IMG/VR virus record: IMGVR_UViG_3300025121_000013
Strand: one strand, 5' to 3'
Length of the DNA stretch: 64,000 nucleotides
Origin: a virus
Taxonomy: Duplodnaviria > Caudoviricetes
The position numbers and the translations under genes were made by a program. The notes beneath the pieces were generated by a model, which was not told where the DNA came from, searched no databases, and was given only the letters and a program-made list of their open reading frames with translations. Shown piece after piece: positions 7,450 to 24,655 of the stretch. Positions within the stretch are counted from its first letter, which is position 1; each line of letters starts with the position of its first letter.

Positions 7450-9687
7450 TTGATGAGTATTTATCCCGCTCAGGCTAGGGCTGTTGATCCATATGCATCT
7501 TATGACAGCAATGTGATTAATCGTCTCACACGTTTGATCTCTAAGGGAAGAAATTGCATATTTCATTCTAACGCTGTCGACGTTGCCTTAGATACAACAA
7601 GCCCATCTGATTATGTTGTGGTTACAAATGGACAAATTATTAAAGATGATGTTCTTATAGATTTTACCGGAAACCATAGAGTTCAGATGAGTGATTCCAC
7701 ATATTACCTCCCATTGTCGTCTCCTTTTAGCGAAGCTGGAATATATTATATTGCTTTAAATTATTCATATATAAAATCTAGACCTGCGCCAAGGGCGTCT
7801 ATAAGAATTCTTCTTCCAAGTCAACGAGCAAATATTTCAGATGCCTCATACTTATTTTTAAAAGCAGTGTCAGTAAGTTTTAATGGAGTTTCCTATCAGG
7901 TTGATTCTTTTCATGATCTTGACCCAACAAACAATTCTGTAAAAAGAGAATATACCCAAGTTTGGGCTGGAACAGAAACGACCCTCCCATCTTTCGATTC
8001 AACAAATGATGAATCAAGATTGATATATGTTCAAAATGAAAAGGAATTATATTTTGGAACCTCAACTGGTTGGGAATCTTTTAATTCGATAAGAACGGCA
8101 GCAAATACGTCTTTATGTTCTGTGGGTCAAATGGTTTATATCTCCACAGATGGATTTGCAAGACCGGCAATTGCGACAAATGAATCTTATTTATGCGATG
8201 CTGGAGTTTTGTCTGTTGGAACGGTTTTAGCCGGAACAGGAAAAGTTCGTTTATATGGTTTTGTACAAAGCGTTCCCATAGAATCGGGAAGATCAATTCA
8301 TTACGGAGAAAATGTTTATTTATCTGAAACTGAAGCTGGGTCAATCACTGATTTGGCTCCATCAGATTTTCAACAATTTTTAGGAATCTCAGTAACCGCA
8401 GGCTCCAGTACAACAGTTTGTGATATTTGGTTTATGCCAGCGAGATCATCAATCCCTGGGCCAATTTCTAGATTTGATAGATATCAAGATCTTTTATTAG
8501 CGTCAGTCTTTAAAAGATTGACCGTTGATGATTTTAGCAATTTGGAATACACAGATATGATTTTAACCACTTCGACTTTAAATACAGATAATTATAGAAT
8601 GGAAGGAACTTCAGGAGAACAATTTGTTTCTAAAAATTTAACAGAATCCGGATATGATGGAACATTTATCACATCTGCGCAAATCACTTCAGATAGCACA
8701 GGGGATATAGATTGGTTTATTACAAATGATGGAACGACTTGGGAAAATGCAACTTTAAATTCAATTCATATGTTTGCAACATATTCCCAAACAATATCAT
8801 TGGTCTCAGGAACTTTTATTCCTAATGAACAAGTTTTATATGGAACTTCTGGAAACTCAGCAATAATTGCTGGGACAGATGGAACATCGACTTTATTAAT
8901 TTCAAATGTTTTAGACACAACGGCATTTGAAATCTTTGAGACTATTACCGGTCAAACAAGTGGAGCGATTGCAACCCTTCTTACAAGTGTACAAAAAAAT
9001 AGCGGGTTTGATTTAAGAATCAAAGCGGTTTTTAATGAAACAGGAAATATAAATGATTATGGGGTTATTTACGATCCCGACTTATCTTTGTTTTCAGTCT
9101 TAACGGGAATGGGTTCTGAAGAGGAAGAAGATTTTATAAGAAAGTTCGTTGGTAAATCTGGCGCTGGGTCAGAAATGCCAACATATTCTTCAACAAATTA
9201 TATCTCCCAAAGTTCTTCTTTAGAAACTGCAATTGGAGTTTTAGATAACGAAATGCCCATTGAGCCAGCCTATATAAGAACGTTTATTGGCAAGACCGGC
9301 GCTGGCTCTGAAACTCCGACTTATAGTTCTCATAATATTTTAGTAAATGGGCAGAGTCTTGAAACCTCTTTATCATTATTGGATTTATATCATGGATATG
9401 TTCCATTTCTTGAAAATAATACAACGGGAACGGTTGCAGCTTATAATTTAGTTAATGGAAAAAAAGTTGGATTAATTTCAATGAACGGAACTGACCTCAC
9501 GACTATAACCGGTGGAGATTCTGGACAAATTATAATTTGTTTATTTTTAGCTTCTTGCTCAATTATATCTGGCGCAACAATTCTTCTTCAGGGTGGAATC
9601 GATTTTGATGGTGAAGCTGGGGATACGTTAACAATTTGTTTAACAGCTTTAGGATGGCTCGAAATTGGAAGAAGTGTAAATTCTTAA
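7450..9687 (+). CDS. virion structural / tail fibre-associated protein
   Basis: 745 aa, Ser/Thr/Gly-rich; two tandem ~46-aa repeats (FVGKSGAGSEMPTYSS...SLETAI..LD); located with collar and Tfa genes. Confidence 0.65.
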   Translation: MMSIYPAQARAVDPYASYDSNVINRLTRLISKGRNCIFHSNAVDVALDTTSPSDYVVVTNGQIIKDDVLIDFTGNHRVQMSDSTYYLPLSSPFSEAGIYYIALNYSYIKSRPAPRASIRILLPSQRANISDASYLFLKAVSVSFNGVSYQVDSFHDLDPTNNSVKREYTQVWAGTETTLPSFDSTNDESRLIYVQNEKELYFGTSTGWESFNSIRTAANTSLCSVGQMVYISTDGFARPAIATNESYLCDAGVLSVGTVLAGTGKVRLYGFVQSVPIESGRSIHYGENVYLSETEAGSITDLAPSDFQQFLGISVTAGSSTTVCDIWFMPARSSIPGPISRFDRYQDLLLASVFKRLTVDDFSNLEYTDMILTTSTLNTDNYRMEGTSGEQFVSKNLTESGYDGTFITSAQITSDSTGDIDWFITNDGTTWENATLNSIHMFATYSQTISLVSGTFIPNEQVLYGTSGNSAIIAGTDGTSTLLISNVLDTTAFEIFETITGQTSGAIATLLTSVQKNSGFDLRIKAVFNETGNINDYGVIYDPDLSLFSVLTGMGSEEEEDFIRKFVGKSGAGSEMPTYSSTNYISQSSSLETAIGVLDNEMPIEPAYIRTFIGKTGAGSETPTYSSHNILVNGQSLETSLSLLDLYHGYVPFLENNTTGTVAAYNLVNGKKVGLISMNGTDLTTITGGDSGQIIICLFLASCSIISGATILLQGGIDFDGEAGDTLTICLTALGWLEIGRSVNS

Positions 9688-10496: not shown

Positions 10497-11147
10497 GTGG
10501 GAAGAAGAGGATTTATAGGGCCTGAAATTGTTGCGACCGAAGCTCTAATTTTAAAAGAAGCTTCGCAGCCAGCCCAAGAAATTGGATTTGGAAAATTATA
10601 TGTCGATACGACAAATAATGATTTATATTATTTACATCCAGTAGATGGTTTATATAATTTGCTTAAATCTTTAGTTCCTATCGGAACAGTGATCGCAGTG
10701 TCTTCTGAAATTATTCCTGACCCAAATACATATTTGGAGTGCAACGGCGCTCTCATTTCAAAAACTGATTTTCCAGAATTATATGCTTATTATTTATTAG
10801 CTGGTGGCGGGGTCACGGCTCTTTATGGAGAAACTGCAACAGATTTTTATTTGCCAGATTATCAAGGGAGATTTTTGAGAGGCTGGGATAATTCAGCTGG
10901 GAGAGATCCAGATGCCGCTTCAAGAACTATGGATCACGGGGCTTTAATTGGAGATTATGTTGGAACAATACAAAGTGATAATGTCGGTGCTCATGATCAT
11001 GATTATTATAGAAGGGTTGACGGTTCTGCAGATAGCGGTGGAAAAGGGCTAGATAACGGTTTGACTACAACGGCTACCGTTAATAATCCAACAGGAGAAA
11101 CTCGTCCATTGAATATCAATGTCATGTATTGTGTAAAGTTTATTTAA
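10497..11147 (+). CDS. tail fibre protein with phage tail collar domain
   Basis: PIGTVIAV...YLECNGALISKTDFPELY...LPDYQGRFLRGWD...ETRPLNINVMYCVK. Confidence 0.9.
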   Translation: MGRRGFIGPEIVATEALILKEASQPAQEIGFGKLYVDTTNNDLYYLHPVDGLYNLLKSLVPIGTVIAVSSEIIPDPNTYLECNGALISKTDFPELYAYYLLAGGGVTALYGETATDFYLPDYQGRFLRGWDNSAGRDPDAASRTMDHGALIGDYVGTIQSDNVGAHDHDYYRRVDGSADSGGKGLDNGLTTTATVNNPTGETRPLNINVMYCVKFI

Positions 11148-11167: not shown

Positions 11168-11725
11168 ATGAAAGTTTATTCCTTTGATAGAAATACAAGA
11201 GAATATATCTATGAAAGAGAGGCTAGAGAAAATCCGAGGTCTCCTGGGGATTTTATTATTCCTGCAAATTCAACCACAATAAAGCCTCCAGAACCAGAAC
11301 AAAATAAAAAAGCAATTTTTTCTGGGGAAGGTTGGGAATTAATTCCTGATTATAGGGATCAAATATTTTTTAGTAAAGAGAATGGAACAAAATGTATAAT
11401 TAAAGAACTTGGGTTTGAACCACCAAAAAATTATATTTCTGAAGAACCTCCAAAACATTTTCATAAGCCAAAATATAAATATAATAAATGGACTGAAACT
11501 TCTTTAATTTTTGAAAATGTTTCTGTTGAGACAAAAGAAGATGTTTTAAAAATTATTTATAATAAAATATCTAATTTAGGAGAACAAAGAGCTCAAACCG
11601 AAAAACTTATTTCCATAGAAAAGAACGAACCATGCCCTTTATGGGATGAATTTATTTTAAGAAGAAATGAATTATTAGAGTTGGCCAATAATTTTATTAA
11701 AGATAATGGATTGGATAAGGATTAA
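11168..11725 (+). CDS. tail fibre assembly chaperone (Tfa-like)
   Basis: VYSFDRNTREYI...IPANSTTIKPP...GWELIPDYR directly after the collar gene. Confidence 0.8.
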   Translation: MKVYSFDRNTREYIYEREARENPRSPGDFIIPANSTTIKPPEPEQNKKAIFSGEGWELIPDYRDQIFFSKENGTKCIIKELGFEPPKNYISEEPPKHFHKPKYKYNKWTETSLIFENVSVETKEDVLKIIYNKISNLGEQRAQTEKLISIEKNEPCPLWDEFILRRNELLELANNFIKDNGLDKD

Positions 11726-12774
11726 AATAATGTATAGTATAAAACCTTCCAATGAATTTTTAGATGAATTAAGAAAGTTAAAAGAGAAAGAAGAATCTTT
11801 AAATATTCAACATACTTTAAAAGCAAAAATTATTCATTTAGAAGAGGAAATTATTATTTTAAAAGAAATATTAAAATTGGGAAAGGTAAATATTAGATAT
11901 AATCCAAGAGCCAAATTGTTCTTTAATTATTTAAACGGAACTATAATGGAGGAAAGCAATGAACCAACAACCCAAGAGTGCTAAAAGCATATGGAGAAAA
12001 ACTTAAAAATGTTACAGATAGAACTTCTTTGTAAAAGACTTTTAGAACAATTACAAAATAAAAGTAAAGGAACTAATTTAATCGAGTCAGTTAACGTAAT
12101 TTGTGAATATCTTGAAAACAAAGAAGATCCTGAGACTTATGAGATCGAGCTAATAAGCGATATGTATCAATTACAAGAAAGACTTAGAATTATTGAATCT
12201 GAATTAAATATGATTTTAAAGAAATCATTAAAGAGAAATTTACTTGGTGAAAAAATAAACGAACTACATAATAAAATAGATTTTTGAACAGAGATTTAAT
12301 TTATCGAAAAAATAAATATTTTAATAGCTCTTTCTACGGAGGAATAAAAATCTTATGGCTGAAGGCAAGCAATTAAGTCGAGACGATCTTTATTTATTAA
12401 TGTCATCTTATGAAAACTGGATTAAGTCGTATTCAGTGCTTTCAGAACAACAGAAAAGAAATATTGAAAAATCAGATGAAATATATGATTTGATTGAAGA
12501 TATTAAAACGAAAATTGCAGATTTAAAAGATAATGGAAATAAGTCTGAAGATGAATTATGTGATAAAATTTCTGAGTTAGATAAAAGATTGAATGAAAAG
12601 ATTGGCTCTTCAAATGTCGAAGCTATAAAAAATTATAATAGTTTAAAGATAATGTTATGGGGCGCATTCTTTGGAATGGTTGGCATTATAGGAAGTCTTA
12701 TAAAACTGTATTTTGATTTTAAATCTAATTTTGATATTTTAAAAGAATTGATAAAAAGTTTGGGGTTACCTTAA
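11706..12774 (+). CDS. three coiled-coil hypothetical proteins (11706-11984, 11991-12287, 12355-12774; the last has a C-terminal TM helix)
   Basis: ORF track; hydrophobic IMLWGAFFGMVGIIGSLIKLYF. Confidence 0.6.
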
Positions 12775-12794
12775 TAATTTTTTCGGAGGTTGAA

Positions 12795-14090
12795 TTGATG
12801 GTTATGGACGAAAAATCTATTATATATGTCATAGATGATGATATAGCCTCAAATTCTGTTATAAGCGATTGGATAGAAAAATTTTTTCCCAATTGCATTG
12901 TTAAATCTTTTTGTAGTTTTGAAGATGCAAATAAAGATGATTATATTGAATTGGTTGATGTTTTTATAATCGATGTAATGTTAAAAACTTTACCTTACAA
13001 TGGGATGGAACTTTGTAGAAAAATTCATGAAAATAGAAATAAAAGTGCATCGTATCTCTTCATATCTGGTTACGAAGATGGGAGAGATATGGTTGATAAA
13101 GTTTTAGACAATTCAGATTGTTTATTTGATTTTATTTCAAAACCTTTTTTACTTGAGCCCTTTATCAATAGATTAAAACTTTTAATTAAAACATCTCATT
13201 TAACTAGGCAAAATGAAAATAAATACAATTTGAGTGAAGGAAAATTTAAATATTTATATGAGGCTTCAGATGAGGGGATCATTATACATCACAATAATAA
13301 AATAGTTCATGCTAATATTTCGTTTTGTAATTTGTTTAAAATAGATTGTGATAAGATTTTTAAGGGAAGATATAAGGTCACTGATTTTATTACTAAAAGT
13401 GATCATGTTGTATTTTTTGATAAATTAAAAAATAATGAAAAATCAATTTATAAAATCAATGCATTGAAAAATGACAATACAGAATTTTTAGCAGAGTTTT
13501 CAACTGGTTATATGTTAAATAATATTGAAAAATGTGATGAAGAAAATGTTTTGGTCACAACAATTAGAGACTTAAGTGAAGTTAAAAAAGCTAAGGAAAC
13601 CATTTCTTTTATTTGGAGTATATTTAATTATTCTAAATTTTTTGTTTTAGTTTTATCCAATGATTTTAAGGTAAAATTATGCAATTGGTATTTGGCATCT
13701 AGATTAGGATATGATGATGAAACAAAAATTATAGGGTCAGATTGGAGAAGATTTGTCCCTCAAAATTATATTCCAATTTTAGGAAATTTAAGGGATATTA
13801 TTTTAAAAAATAGCGATAATAATTATCAAGAATTTGTGAATGATATTATTACTTTAGATAATAAGGTCATAACCGTTAGATGGTTTAACGGCATGATTCA
13901 AACAAATGGAAAAGGAATATTCTCGATAGGCGTTCCTATTGAGCAAACAAATGCAATTTTAGATTCTGAAGAGTCGATTCGGTCTTATTGGAAAAATATG
14001 ATTTTAAAAGATGGACAAGCCTTAGACATAATGAAAGAGGTTATAAAGGGTCAGCCAAAACAAAATCCAAATTCGTTTCTCGATATATAG
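12795..14090 (+). CDS. response-regulator receiver + two PAS-like domains, no output domain
   Basis: IYVIDDD, FIIDVML (phosphoacceptor Asp), ISG, ISKPF; PAS-like FKYLYEASDEGIIIH...VHANISFCNLF...TIRDLSE and KVKLCNWYLASRLGY...IIGSDW. Confidence 0.85.
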   Translation: MMVMDEKSIIYVIDDDIASNSVISDWIEKFFPNCIVKSFCSFEDANKDDYIELVDVFIIDVMLKTLPYNGMELCRKIHENRNKSASYLFISGYEDGRDMVDKVLDNSDCLFDFISKPFLLEPFINRLKLLIKTSHLTRQNENKYNLSEGKFKYLYEASDEGIIIHHNNKIVHANISFCNLFKIDCDKIFKGRYKVTDFITKSDHVVFFDKLKNNEKSIYKINALKNDNTEFLAEFSTGYMLNNIEKCDEENVLVTTIRDLSEVKKAKETISFIWSIFNYSKFFVLVLSNDFKVKLCNWYLASRLGYDDETKIIGSDWRRFVPQNYIPILGNLRDIILKNSDNNYQEFVNDIITLDNKVITVRWFNGMIQTNGKGIFSIGVPIEQTNAILDSEESIRSYWKNMILKDGQALDIMKEVIKGQPKQNPNSFLDI

Positions 14091-14101: not shown

Positions 14102-14485
14102 ATGCTAACTGACAATTATAAGACACCTTCAAAAAGTGTTTCAACCACAACAATTGAGAATAGTGTCGTGTTTACAAATAATAATTTACAAGGACAATTT
14201 TATTTTGTTGATGCGACTGGAGAAATAACCGTGACGCTTGAGGATGTTGTGGATTGTATAGATGGAGCCAGTGCCACTTTTAGAACGTTAAACGCTCAAG
14301 TTTTAAATATAAGACCCGATGCGACAGATAGAATTATAAATTCTGATGGAACAGTTTTGGCCGTAGGAAATAAATTGACTTCTTCAGGCGCAGCAGGAGA
14401 TCAGGTTACAATTTTAAAAGATAGTTTAAGTGGATGGTCTGTGGTTGGACGAGGTGAACAGGCATGGACAGATGGCGGGGCCTAA
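14102..14485 (+). CDS. small virion structural protein (beta-rich)
   Basis: Start reassigned to MLTDNYK (14102) after GAGAGGG. Confidence 0.55.
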   Translation: MLTDNYKTPSKSVSTTTIENSVVFTNNNLQGQFYFVDATGEITVTLEDVVDCIDGASATFRTLNAQVLNIRPDATDRIINSDGTVLAVGNKLTSSGAAGDQVTILKDSLSGWSVVGRGEQAWTDGGA

Positions 14486-14593: not shown

Positions 14594-15235
14594 ATGGCTA
14601 ATTTCGAAATCTCATATAATAAAACTTTAAATTTTGAGGGTGGATATGCAAATCATCCAAATGATATGGGTGGGGAAACTTATAAAGGTGTAGCACGAAA
14701 AAAGAATCCAAATTGGGAAGGGTGGCCTATCATTGATCAGATGAGGAATAAACCAGGCTTTCCTTCAAATTTAGATTCTATTTCTGAATTACAAAAATAT
14801 ATAAGAAATTTCTATAAAGCTGAGTTTTGGGATAAGTTTTGGGGAGACAAACAATCAAGTCAAAATATAGCGAATGAATTATTTGATACGTCTATTCTTT
14901 GCGGTCCGGGAACAGCTATAGGGTTTCTTCAAGTTGCTTTAAATGTTTTGAATAAAGGTGGAAAATTATATCCGGAAATAAGTGAAGATGGTAATTATGG
15001 CATGAATACAAATAATTCTATTATAGCTTATTTAAAGAAAGATGATGAAAATCTTTTGTTAAAGATTTTAAATGTTTTATTGGGATATCATTTTATAAAA
15101 TTATCGAGAAATAAAGAAACCCAAGAAGACTTTATTAGAGGGTGGTTTAAAAGAGTTGAATTACCATTAAATGATGATAATGAATTTAGATCACAGGTTC
15201 AAAATGCTTTGACATTTAAACCATTGAGGTTCTAA
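14594..15235 (+). CDS. endolysin, glycoside hydrolase family 108 with peptidoglycan-binding domain
   Basis: EGGYANHPNDMGGETYKGV catalytic motif, FYKAEFWD, C-terminal FIRGWFKRV. Confidence 0.92.
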   Translation: MANFEISYNKTLNFEGGYANHPNDMGGETYKGVARKKNPNWEGWPIIDQMRNKPGFPSNLDSISELQKYIRNFYKAEFWDKFWGDKQSSQNIANELFDTSILCGPGTAIGFLQVALNVLNKGGKLYPEISEDGNYGMNTNNSIIAYLKKDDENLLLKILNVLLGYHFIKLSRNKETQEDFIRGWFKRVELPLNDDNEFRSQVQNALTFKPLRF

Positions 15236-15239
15236 AGCC

Positions 15240-15602
15240 ATGAAAGACGAAACTTTAAAAAAATCAGTAAAAATAAGATTTTTAGAGAATATTATGTCAG
15301 TTAAAGTTTGGATGTATTTGATCTCACTTTTCGTTTTAGGATTTTTTGGGGCATGGATAATTTACAATGATTTTGAATTGGTTTTTAGAGTTTTAAAATC
15401 TGATTTACAACCTGATTCATATGTATATATAGTTGAAATGTCAAGGGTTATAAAGGATACATTTTTAGGTTTATGTATGTCAATAACGAGCTTAGTGGGA
15501 ACTATTGTGGTTGTTAGAGAAACCTTTAAGGTTGGAAAACTAAGAGCCTTGAATAATGAGAAAACTGATAATTCAGAAACCATAAAAAGAATGGATATAT
15601 AA
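15240..15602 (+). CDS. putative holin (2 TM)
   Basis: Two hydrophobic helices, charged C-terminus, adjacent to the endolysin. Confidence 0.55.
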   Translation: MKDETLKKSVKIRFLENIMSVKVWMYLISLFVLGFFGAWIIYNDFELVFRVLKSDLQPDSYVYIVEMSRVIKDTFLGLCMSITSLVGTIVVVRETFKVGKLRALNNEKTDNSETIKRMDI

Positions 15603-15604
15603 AA

Positions 15605-15997
15605 ATGGATCCAAATTCAATTTTAACCTATGGAAAAGACACTTTAGATTATGTCGATGTTTTAAAATATGGTTTGGGTGGAATAGGCGTCTTTGGAATT
15701 TTAATGTTAATTTTTTCTAAAGGATTAGGCTTTCTATCTAAACGAAATATTCAAAATCATGAAAATACAGTTCAGAATGCGATTCCCTTAATTAACAATG
15801 TTACACAAAAACAAACAGAGGTTTTACAAAAAATTGATGCTTTAGAAAATGTCGAAAAAGATAAAAAAGAAGAAATTAAAAAAATAATCGAAGATACAAA
15901 TCAAGAAGTAAATGAAGCTTTGAATAGTTCTTCATTGAATATGACAAATAATTCTGTGAGGTCTAAATGGGAAGAATTACAAAAGCGGCATCGATAA
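15605..15997 (+). CDS. putative inner-membrane spanin-like protein
   Basis: N-terminal TM followed by coiled coil; overlaps the following lipoprotein gene. Confidence 0.5.
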   Translation: MDPNSILTYGKDTLDYVDVLKYGLGGIGVFGILMLIFSKGLGFLSKRNIQNHENTVQNAIPLINNVTQKQTEVLQKIDALENVEKDKKEEIKKIIEDTNQEVNEALNSSSLNMTNNSVRSKWEELQKRHR

Positions 15998-16533
15998 TTT
16001 GTTTTTTACTTTTTTTTAGTTTATCCTGTGCTTCTGCTCCCTATGAAAAACAATTAATTCCTGAACCAAACTTTCCTGAAAGTTTTAATTCTCCAGAAAT
16101 AAAAATAGATCCGAAGGAATTTTTAAAACAAATTAAAATTCCTGATATGCCCAATTTTATATTTGTTAATATTGATCAAACAGGAAAGATCATTCAAGTT
16201 CCTGATAATCAAATTGATGATGCAAAATACATTTTAATGACAGATGATGGATATAAGAAATTAGATGCTTTATTAAGCATTATTTTAAAATATGAAGAAT
16301 TGATGATAGCAAATGGAGAATTAACAAATATAAAAATTGAAAAAATTAATTTGTTAATTGATGCTTTAAAATTTGAAAGATATAAAGCTGATACATATAA
16401 AAGTTTATGGCAAAACACGGAAGAAACTTTAAGAAAAGAACAAAAATATAATAAATTAAGAGAAAGTATAGATAATGGAGTTTTTAGAGTTTTATCAGTT
16501 GGAGCGATAATCGCTTTAATAATGAGTTTATAA
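15967..16533 (+). CDS. lipoprotein spanin candidate with a C-terminal TM helix
   Basis: Signal peptide and lipobox FSLS-C; coiled coil; C-terminal VFRVLSVGAIIALIMSL. Confidence 0.6.
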   Translation: MGRITKAASIICFLLFFSLSCASAPYEKQLIPEPNFPESFNSPEIKIDPKEFLKQIKIPDMPNFIFVNIDQTGKIIQVPDNQIDDAKYILMTDDGYKKLDALLSIILKYEELMIANGELTNIKIEKINLLIDALKFERYKADTYKSLWQNTEETLRKEQKYNKLRESIDNGVFRVLSVGAIIALIMSL

Positions 16534-23422: not shown

Positions 23423-24655
23423 ATGGGTAATGATTATTCAAAATTATATGATTTTGTTTTAACAAGTATTAAAGAAAATAAATCAAGACGAGAAACTTAC
23501 GAAAAAGCTGTTAATGATTATGAATACAAATCATCTTTTGAAGGCTTTAAAACTTTATGGAAAAGAGTTAATCGAAAGTTCAATAATTCAACCCCAATTA
23601 TAAAAAAATGGTTTCCCACTCCTGAAGAATTTAAAGAAAGTGTTATTCAAGATAATTCCTTTATAGATATCATTAAGAAAAAGAAAAATATAAAAATAAC
23701 AGAATTATGTGATTTGTTATATTGTCCCCCTATACGCATAATTGAATTTGTGGATTATTATAGATCAAAAGGTTATGAGATAAGTGTGTTTTCAGATTTT
23801 GTTTGTCTGAGTAAAGACGCCCCAAATTTAAATGTTTCAAAGGTTGAAAAATTAGAAGATAAAGAAATTATCTTTGGCGTTGCCTCTGATATTCACTTCG
23901 GTTCAACATCCTGCCAAATCACCGCTTTAAATGAATTCGCTGAGATATGTAAAAACAATAATGTTAAATATATGTTTTCTCCAGGAGATTTAGTTTCTGG
24001 AATTAAAATGTTTCCAGGTCATGAATATGACGTTTATGAAATGTCAGCCGAAGGCCAAGAAAATTCCGCAATTATAAATCTTCCAAAAGGTTTTATCTGG
24101 TATATTCTTGGCGGAAATCACGATTATTCTTTTATCACAAAAGGAGGCGGACATAATCCTTTGTTAAGAGTTTCATCAGAAAGAGAAGATGTAAATTATG
24201 TTGGGTATGATGAAGTCGATATTCCTATATTAAATGGTGTGGATATGAAAATGTGGCATCCTTCAGGTGGGGTTCCCTACGCTATGTCTTATAGATTACA
24301 AAAAGGAATTGAACAAGCTGCCTATAATGAATTATCTAGCATCGCTAATGGTTTGAAAAATAAACAGAGTTTGAGATTTGTTTTATGTGGTCATTTACAT
24401 ATTCAATTACAAGCAATGTTTGGCTCTATTTTTGGAGCACAATGTGGAACGTTTGAAGGAAAAACAAACTATTTAAAAAAGAAAGGTTTGACTCCAAATA
24501 TCGGCGGATATATTATCAAGGCTACATTAGATAAAAATGGAATGTTCAAAAACTTCTCAGCAAAATTTTATGTATTTCCTGAGATTGAAAATGATTGGAA
24601 AAATTATAAACATTCAGTAACAAATAATAAAATAGAAAAACCTATTTTTGGATAG
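23423..24655 (+). CDS. calcineurin-like metallophosphoesterase with an N-terminal extension
   Basis: SDIHFG, GDLVSG, GNHD, HP, GHLH motifs. Confidence 0.88.
   Translation: MGNDYSKLYDFVLTSIKENKSRRETYEKAVNDYEYKSSFEGFKTLWKRVNRKFNNSTPIIKKWFPTPEEFKESVIQDNSFIDIIKKKKNIKITELCDLLYCPPIRIIEFVDYYRSKGYEISVFSDFVCLSKDAPNLNVSKVEKLEDKEIIFGVASDIHFGSTSCQITALNEFAEICKNNNVKYMFSPGDLVSGIKMFPGHEYDVYEMSAEGQENSAIINLPKGFIWYILGGNHDYSFITKGGGHNPLLRVSSEREDVNYVGYDEVDIPILNGVDMKMWHPSGGVPYAMSYRLQKGIEQAAYNELSSIANGLKNKQSLRFVLCGHLHIQLQAMFGSIFGAQCGTFEGKTNYLKKKGLTPNIGGYIIKATLDKNGMFKNFSAKFYVFPEIENDWKNYKHSVTNNKIEKPIFG

Follow-up and report, generated by a model that had tools for sequence, protein, structure and literature searches.

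The 64,000-nucleotide stretch considered here (the window) belongs to the IMG/VR virus record IMGVR_UViG_3300025121_000013 (Duplodnaviria; Caudoviricetes) and carries, at positions 12795-14090 of its + strand, a gene for a protein that consists of a receiver (REC) domain, two PAS domains and a C-terminal helix. This protein, termed c0, is a member of a large family so far found only on viral and metagenomic contigs; its gene is always accompanied by an upstream gene for a small protein with a single predicted membrane helix (c1), and the pair repeatedly stands beside endolysin genes of unrelated classes. The interpretation tentatively favoured here, with slightly less than even confidence, is that c0 would be a cytoplasmic sensor controlling a holin-like or antiholin-like c1, and would thereby set the timing of lysis. 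An earlier sequence-only reading of the gene had described the REC-PAS-PAS arrangement and proposed three possible functions, namely a phosphate sink for a host kinase, a dominant-negative partner of host PAS proteins, or a sensor linking host state to lysis timing. Its observation is confirmed and its interpretation as a whole is partly supported; the obligate upstream partner c1 was not mentioned in it.

Domain Architecture of c0

The c0 open reading frame (ORF) is uninterrupted and comprises 431 codons from a TTG at 12795; the likely start is the ATG at 12798, which lies 8 nt downstream of a ribosome-binding site (GGAGG, 12785-12789, + strand) read from the sequence. The REC domain (residues ~8-119; 12816-13151, +) contains D14/D15/D16, D60, S91, F111 and K116-P117. 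An AlphaFold2 model of the full protein, with a mean predicted local distance difference test score (pLDDT) of 81 and poor values in residues 212-247 of PAS-A, places five strand-helix units over residues 8-119 at a pLDDT of 85-98, which is the (βα)5 fold of receivers. Partial NCBIfam matches to PhoB, YycF and FixJ extend over residues 10-135, a phmmer search of the PDB matches the receivers of ArlR, PhoB-family proteins and PhoP, and a profile of 86 family members matches the PhoP receiver (3e-17) together with more than 200 other receivers in the PDB. When c0 is aligned with the reference receivers ArlR, DrrB and a PhoB-family regulator, D14/D15(/D16), D60, S91 and K116-P117 coincide with the acidic pocket, the phospho-Asp, the Thr/Ser and the Lys-Pro positions, respectively; the PDB alignments and the model thus bear out the earlier statement that the receiver residues are intact. 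The Pfam Response_reg model (PF00072) gives no match above its gathering threshold on c0 or elsewhere in the whole virus record, and the relatives P0003-P0007 do carry PF00072. The c0 receiver is a divergent one, because the Pfam model fails to score this copy.

In the AlphaFold2 model, helix 5 of the receiver runs on as a long helix (residues 120-157; 13152-13265, +) into PAS-A (residues 161-258; 13275-13568, +). PAS-A is identified by the alignment and by matches to Pfam PAS_9 (29.2 bits against a cut-off of 27, residues 160-262), Pfam PAS_8 and TIGR00229 (24.7 bits against a cut-off of 22.9), and taken alone it resembles the PAS domains of bacterial histidine kinases. A helix of residues 260-279 in the same model separates it from PAS-B (residues 283-381; 13641-13937, +), the family-defining core, which is followed by a Jα-like C-terminal helix of about 30 residues (388-418; 13956-14048, +) recognized from AlphaFold2 models and conservation. 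PAS-B has no Pfam match in this copy, and PAS_4 is weakly matched by the PAS-B of 17 of 25 relatives; the domain was identified by conservation and by its fold. A separate AlphaFold2 model of residues 265-431 (pLDDT 88) was matched by Foldseek to PDB 3bwl with a template modelling score (TMt) of 0.82 and a root-mean-square deviation of 2.0, as well as to many further PAS structures, and shows the five-stranded sheet and flanking helices of the PAS fold. Over its tandem PAS region, the full model was likewise aligned by Foldseek with PpsR, FixL and LOV-PAS structures. Both PAS-like domains of the sequence-only reading are therefore upheld, the first by Pfam and TIGR00229 and the second by its fold.

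No kinase, GGDEF, helix-turn-helix or other output domain was found when c0 was scanned with Pfam and NCBIfam and in its AlphaFold2 model, as the same reading had stated. Its description of a protein without an output domain is probably too strict, however, since the C-terminal PAS domain and helix are most likely themselves the output and would act by protein-protein contact. A search of the PHROG families with c0 gave a sole match through the REC domain, to phrog_731, whose function is unannotated, and none to a holin, antiholin or spanin family.

Two cofactor-based identities were considered and rejected for c0. The translation lacks the GXNCRFL-type motif with the adduct-forming Cys of LOV flavin photosensors, and it has R333 where part of the family has the Fα His, which argues against a haem-PAS sensor of the FixL/DOS type. 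The Fα His is present in the core PAS of 84 of the 167 family members; its position is taken here to be near that of the proximal His of haem-PAS sensors, and the His-bearing subset of the family may bind a cofactor.

The c0 Family and its Distribution

An exhaustive search of 1.84 billion representative proteins returned 138 matches at E ≤ 1e-10, and at least 160 distinct relatives are present on viral and metagenomic contigs. The commonest architecture, of about 295 residues, is a REC domain followed by the C-terminal PAS and helix. PAS-A is, by alignment, an insertion relative to most of the family; the REC-insert-PAS form seen in the window also occurs at locus L029 and in P0010, P0014, P0015, P0017 and P0034, the last five of which align with c0 over its full length, including PAS-A, at 28-35% identity. 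About 36 of 169 members consist of the PAS and helix alone, and in a further 25-30 of the 169 one or two other PAS domains replace the receiver. Approximately one third of the family thus lacks REC, and yet the membrane partner c1 is kept.

The invariant core of the family is the last PAS domain (PAS-B) together with the C-terminal helix, and the N-terminal inputs (REC, PAS or none) are exchangeable. Strongly conserved over 167 members are N297, L300, L304, G305, E346, V361, W363, F364, N365, G379, P381, R396, D406 and I410, with W363 present in 167/167; the window copy retains every one of these residues except for a conservative I410L replacement. Across 84 family receivers, D60 is conserved in 94%, S/T91 in 82%, K116 in 74% and P117 in 79%, and the receiver is under constraint across the family. 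A His at position 14 and a Glu at position 116 are each found in about 17-19% of the receivers, and the similarity of these tallies suggests that the two occur together in one pseudo-receiver sub-group.

Genomic context was drawn from IMG/VR and JGI/ENA contigs. Members were located by pattern scans, with confirmation by tblastn, on seven IMG/VR contigs (17-269 kb in length) and at 53 loci from metagenomes, activated-sludge assemblies among them. Two pattern scans with the core motifs, run over 185,579 prokaryote species with a single genome apiece, found no relative, a result limited to what patterns can detect and not equivalent to an exhaustive hidden Markov model search; patterns of the same motifs did work elsewhere than in cellular genomes. 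Searches of 50,697 GenBank phage records by tblastn with P0001, P0028 and a c1 member gave no match, nor did a megablast of the c0 region against GenBank phages, and single-protein scans of IMG/VR with P0034 and P0010 found nothing. The family looks specific to uncultivated, mostly large and probably virulent phages.

This distribution bears on the notion that c0 was captured from a host sensor gene not long ago and is now a decaying or functionless remnant. A sporadic, decaying captured fragment that relatives lack was the outcome named in the sequence-only reading as one that would undo its proposal. The likeness of PAS-A to kinase PAS domains and the failure of the Pfam receiver model would agree with such an origin. 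Nevertheless, the notion is scarcely credible, because the frame is intact with all key residues present, more than 160 relatives with conserved synteny and invariant residues form a large family on viral contigs, the core-motif patterns match none of the cellular genomes scanned, and the guanine-plus-cytosine (GC) content of 0.258 at 12-14 kb, counted here as within range, fits that of the rest of the window (0.26-0.36).

The Obligate Partner c1 and the Frequent Companion c2

Comparison of synteny in related phages, a check proposed in the sequence-only reading, revealed a partner gene immediately upstream of c0. ORFs were called in all loci and clustered by BLASTP. Of the non-redundant loci, 41 have 500 nt or more of upstream sequence, and in all 41 the PAS-family gene directly follows c1; clustering alone gave 40 of 41, and the exception, L046, carries c1 on inspection. 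The two genes are mostly −4 to +36 nt apart, and in some loci (nine) a 100-residue ORF, c12, intervenes. The pairing is obligate, and c1 is an undescribed protein family.

In the window, c1 (12355-12774, +) has 139 residues; by alignment and hydropathy, its N-terminal motif is followed by a coiled coil and by a single C-terminal membrane helix (residues ~97-118). Its homologs are of 113-189 residues (about 140) and share an N-terminal motif in which D11, L12, Y19 and N21 are nearly invariant, beyond which a variable coiled coil leads to a single membrane helix near the C-terminus. The Atlas clusters nearest to c1 by features are all viral and mostly consist of unnamed hypothetical proteins. 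A conserved His just before the membrane helix was considered as a phosphotransfer site and dropped, since several clades and the window copy lack it.

A third gene, c2, frequently joins the pair. The window copy (11991-12287, +) encodes a 98-residue coiled-coil protein without a membrane helix or a Pfam or PHROG family, and among the 33 non-redundant loci in which 1.2 kb or more of upstream sequence is available, 19 have a homolog 5′ of the pair. In one large clade, the pair is accompanied by c12 and by two other small conserved ORFs, c5 and c3, which stand just 3′ of it (15 and 19 loci, respectively), and none of the three has a family match; in L009, c12, c5 and c3 occupy 7659-7961, 8920-9159 and 9162-9425.

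Proximity to Endolysin Genes

Endolysins of three unrelated classes adjoin the pair or stand within two genes of it. In the window, a GH108-type endolysin is encoded two genes 3′ of c0. An amidase (phrog_435; PDB 4rn7) is located 5′ of c1 in 10 loci: in six it directly adjoins c1, in three an HNH gene separates the two, and at the remaining locus it is cut off by the end of the contig; in the directly adjacent loci, the amidase is itself preceded by a gene for a two-helix holin-like protein. An endolysin of phrog_894 lies directly 5′ of c1 in five loci, and in L028 it stands between c2 and c1. These arrangements are spread over at least five separate lineages of a quick tree of PAS-B. At three loci (L003, L004 and L028), c1 is the sole predicted membrane protein in about 16 kb and is positioned immediately 3′ of the endolysin, which, as judged from predicted features, is the classical signature of a holin. 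An operational definition of a holin (small, with a membrane helix, next to an endolysin) fits c1 in the amidase and phrog_894 clades, and c1 is not adjacent to an endolysin in others. In L009, L005 and L015, an SLT-domain protein and a weak GH19 candidate are encoded 5-7 genes upstream, and in L021 they are farther away; several candidate lysins in other clades had no family match.

Mobile and accessory genes were also observed in these neighborhoods. In some phages of one clade, an HNH homing endonuclease gene (phrog_119, 3e-57) has been inserted at precisely the junction of the amidase and c1 genes (L008:5778-7136, and also L045, L048 and L049); this gene is absent in relatives of the same clade, and a second small HNH gene is found 3′ of c0 in 12 loci (e.g., L002:10578-10913). 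The late region of L009 contains, shortly before the SLT-domain lysin, a gene (L009:2791-3780) for an alpha/beta hydrolase that resembles the C-terminus of polyhydroxybutyrate (PHB) depolymerase (PF06850, 1.4e-15).

The repeated proximity of endolysins, together with the position of c1 as the only nearby membrane protein in some phages, makes lysis the most likely target of the pair. The sequence-only reading had placed c0 just before the lysis cassette; the endolysin is indeed 3′ of it in a phage context, but an ORF of 127 codons (14102-14485) stands between them. The putative function that it suggested, in which a sensor would couple lysis timing to the state of the host, is made more likely by the synteny with three unrelated endolysin classes.

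Several observations weigh against a role in lysis. In L006 and L007, the pair precedes a tail assembly chaperone gene and a gene for a 930-residue protein, and not an endolysin, and approximately half of the well-flanked loci have no identified lysin among the nearest few genes. The window phage encodes a separate two-helix holin-like protein and spanin-like proteins 3′ of its endolysin, and c1 is therefore not needed as its sole holin. All of the genes belong to one long late operon, so that position alone is weak evidence. Furthermore, 30 members of c1 showed no consistent Pfam or PHROG family, including the holin, antiholin and spanin families, and its topology, with the large N-terminal part probably cytoplasmic, is deduced from the lack of a signal peptide.

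Some of these points would be explained if the c1-c0(-c2) module served another late process, such as virion or tail-fibre maturation, superinfection exclusion or membrane counter-defence. The closeness of endolysins would then reflect the usual placement of accessory genes between the tail and lysis modules; in the window, the pair does stand between tail-fibre genes and lysis genes, in L006 it precedes the tail assembly chaperone, in L003, L004 and L028 it precedes tail-fibre-like paralogs (cluster c13), and at several loci there is no identified lysin near it. This explanation nonetheless appears rather unlikely. Lysins account for about one gene in 100-300, so that the adjacency of three non-homologous classes in several deep lineages is unlikely to be due to chance, and the three loci where no membrane protein other than c1 stands beside the endolysin also speak against it. 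To our knowledge, moreover, PAS or REC sensors have no role in virion assembly.

A Proposed Model of Sensor-Controlled Lysis and the Probable Source of the Signal

If lysis is the target, c1 would be a membrane-anchored subunit, held by its C-terminal helix with the coiled-coil domain facing the cytoplasm, and the PAS-B domain and helix of c0 would dock on this coiled coil and alter the activity of c1. The N-terminal part of c0 would supply the inputs: in the window copy, the receiver may accept a phosphoryl group on D60 from acetyl phosphate or a host histidine kinase, and the additional PAS-A domain may form a second input, possibly by binding a ligand. Phosphorylation of D60 or occupancy of a PAS domain would change the contact between c0 and c1 and shift the moment at which c1 acts, such that c0 could advance or delay the triggering of c1 according to the signaling or energy state of the host. 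The small coiled-coil protein c2 is a frequent companion of this pair. In this model, the physical contact of c1 with c0, the phosphorylation of c0 and the effect on lysis are all inferred.

The virus record of the window and five further virus records with family members, four of them 45-80% complete and one 16%, were searched for HisKA-type kinases, and none was found. Of the HATPase_c matches in these records, the one that was checked is a topoisomerase subunit, and a second, in an ORF of similar length, is presumably the same. Because no phage-encoded HisKA kinase was found, the phosphoryl donor, if the receiver is phosphorylated at all, would be of host origin, be it a kinase or a small molecule, for example acetyl phosphate.

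The lack of a phage kinase, along with the intact and conserved receiver, would also be expected if c0 mainly interfered with host two-component signaling, as a phosphoryl drain or by pairing with host PAS proteins, and so reprogrammed host expression; tethering by c1 might place the receiver beside membrane-bound host kinases. Such a role is improbable in view of the composition of the family. The PAS-only members, those with PAS in place of REC and those with H14/E116 all keep c1, and the conserved function therefore does not need phosphotransfer. Both of the host-directed functions proposed in the sequence-only reading are weakened on these grounds, the phosphate sink because about a third of the family lacks REC and keeps c1, and the dominant-negative partner of host PAS proteins because the REC-less members keep the same membrane partner. 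A place in the late operon would, in addition, be late for the reprogramming of a host.

Comparison with Known Systems

Response regulators in which REC is accompanied by PAS only are an architecture known from censuses of bacterial response regulators. Like them, c0 has a CheY-like receiver with all of the phospho-acceptor residues followed by PAS, and has no enzymatic or DNA-binding output, such that its output would be exerted by protein contact. Unlike them, the c0 family is found on viral and metagenomic contigs only, REC is optional, the invariant core is the C-terminal PAS with its helix, and a dedicated membrane-anchored coiled-coil partner is always present. A second resemblance is to the short LOV or short PAS proteins (PpSB1-LOV and W619_1-LOV; 5luv, 3sw1 and 8q5e), which comprise a cap helix, a PAS core and a Jα helix with no fused effector; Foldseek retrieved these three structures, among others, for the PAS-B model, and the stand-alone family members have the same layout. 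By contrast with short LOV proteins, the c0 family lacks the flavin Cys motif and shows no detectable sequence relationship beyond the PAS fold, most of its members have a fused REC or PAS input, and it is phage-borne and linked to a membrane partner.

The nearest functional analogy to the role in lysis proposed for c0 is provided by RI and RIII of phage T4. Both are encoded with lysis genes and adjust the firing of the holin T upon a signal, and RIII, itself on the cytoplasmic side, targets the cytoplasmic portion of this one-helix holin (PMC11413866, PMC8385771). RI and RIII contain neither PAS nor REC and have no sequence or fold similarity to c0, and the signal is superinfection in T4 as opposed to the phosphoryl group or ligand proposed for c0. 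Like the class III holins, of which T4 T is an example, c1 is small, has one membrane helix and can be encoded directly beside an endolysin; its layout is nevertheless the reverse of that of T4 T, in that the large domain precedes the helix and presumably lies in the cytoplasm, and only a short tail follows. The only Rec domain described in a survey of jumbo phages is another divergent variant, associated with NAD/ADP-ribose systems (PMC7824862). Searches of the open literature turned up no account of phage lysis cassettes that contain PAS or REC proteins.

Gene Neighborhood in the Window

The IMG/VR record that holds the window is a viral sequence of 139,369 bp with a GC content of 29.5%; its estimated completeness is 45% (CheckV), from which the full phage genome is probably about 300 kb. 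Genes at ~6700-40400 of the window are tightly packed and all on the + strand, and the phage context of c0 is confirmed by the virus record, the tail genes 5′ of it and the endolysin 3′ of it. The late structural genes upstream encode a tail fibre (10497-11147, +; phrog_523, 4e-28) and a tail-fibre assembly protein (11168-11725, +; phrog_105, 3e-22). Three genes separate them from c0, namely a small ORF (11706-11984, +), c2 and c1. The 127-residue ORF that follows c0 (14102-14485, +) has no PHROG match, formed a singleton cluster in the comparison of neighbors and is not conserved in related loci. A scan for promoters and terminators gave no signal above shuffled controls.

Downstream of this ORF, the endolysin gene (14594-15235, +) encodes a GH108-type muramidase with a PG_binding_3-type tail (phrog_315, 6e-29; PDB 6v3z, 3.8e-25; also 2is5 and 2ikb). 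The next gene (15240-15602, +) encodes a 120-residue protein with two membrane helices by hydropathy, which has no PHROG family and is holin-like by features only. It is followed by two genes whose products are spanin-like, likewise by features only: a 130-residue protein (15605-15997, +) that has a membrane helix in its N-terminal part and a charged C-terminal part, which by eye looks helix-like or coiled coil, and that resembles an inner-membrane spanin in hydropathy and sequence, and a 188-residue protein (15967-16533, +) with an N-terminal signal and a lipobox-like L-S-C, read from the sequence, that resembles an outer-membrane spanin and whose gene overlaps the preceding one. The lipobox protein also has a predicted C-terminal membrane helix (residues 167-188), which is unusual for an outer-membrane spanin. 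By these features, the four genes at 14594-16533 constitute a putative cassette of endolysin, holin and two spanins, which suggests a diderm host.

Elsewhere in the window, ARAGORN identified a tRNA-like gene (52606-52692, − strand) whose anticodon has four bases (ggcc) and to which no amino acid is assigned. It directly adjoins a tRNA-Leu(taa) gene; the window contains eight tRNA genes, this one included. A late protein of 410 residues (23423-24655) has as its sole match among GenBank phages a hypothetical protein of the archaeal Halorubrum tailed virus BLv36 (27.5% identity, E 3e-25), and a protein of 523 residues (59089-60660) has no match among them.

Implications for Phage Biology

The timing of lysis determines burst size and phage fitness. 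We know of no tuner of lysis timing, T4 lysis inhibition and dual-start holins included, that reads the signaling pathways of the host. It is tempting, though doubtful at present, to extend the favoured interpretation and to suppose that c1 is a new kind of holin or antiholin gated by the PAS sensor c0, through which host kinase or energy signaling would be wired to the lysis clock in a manner widespread among uncultivated large phages. If this were true, the release of phage would be coupled to the phosphorylation, redox or metabolite state of the host. The PAS-plus-helix core and its c1 partner represent two families that are absent from Pfam, PHROGs and GenBank phages, and as a small gene pair they are amenable to synthesis and laboratory tests. 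Even if the target is not lysis, a sensor obligately paired with a membrane partner in more than 40 distinct phage loci constitutes an undescribed regulatory unit.

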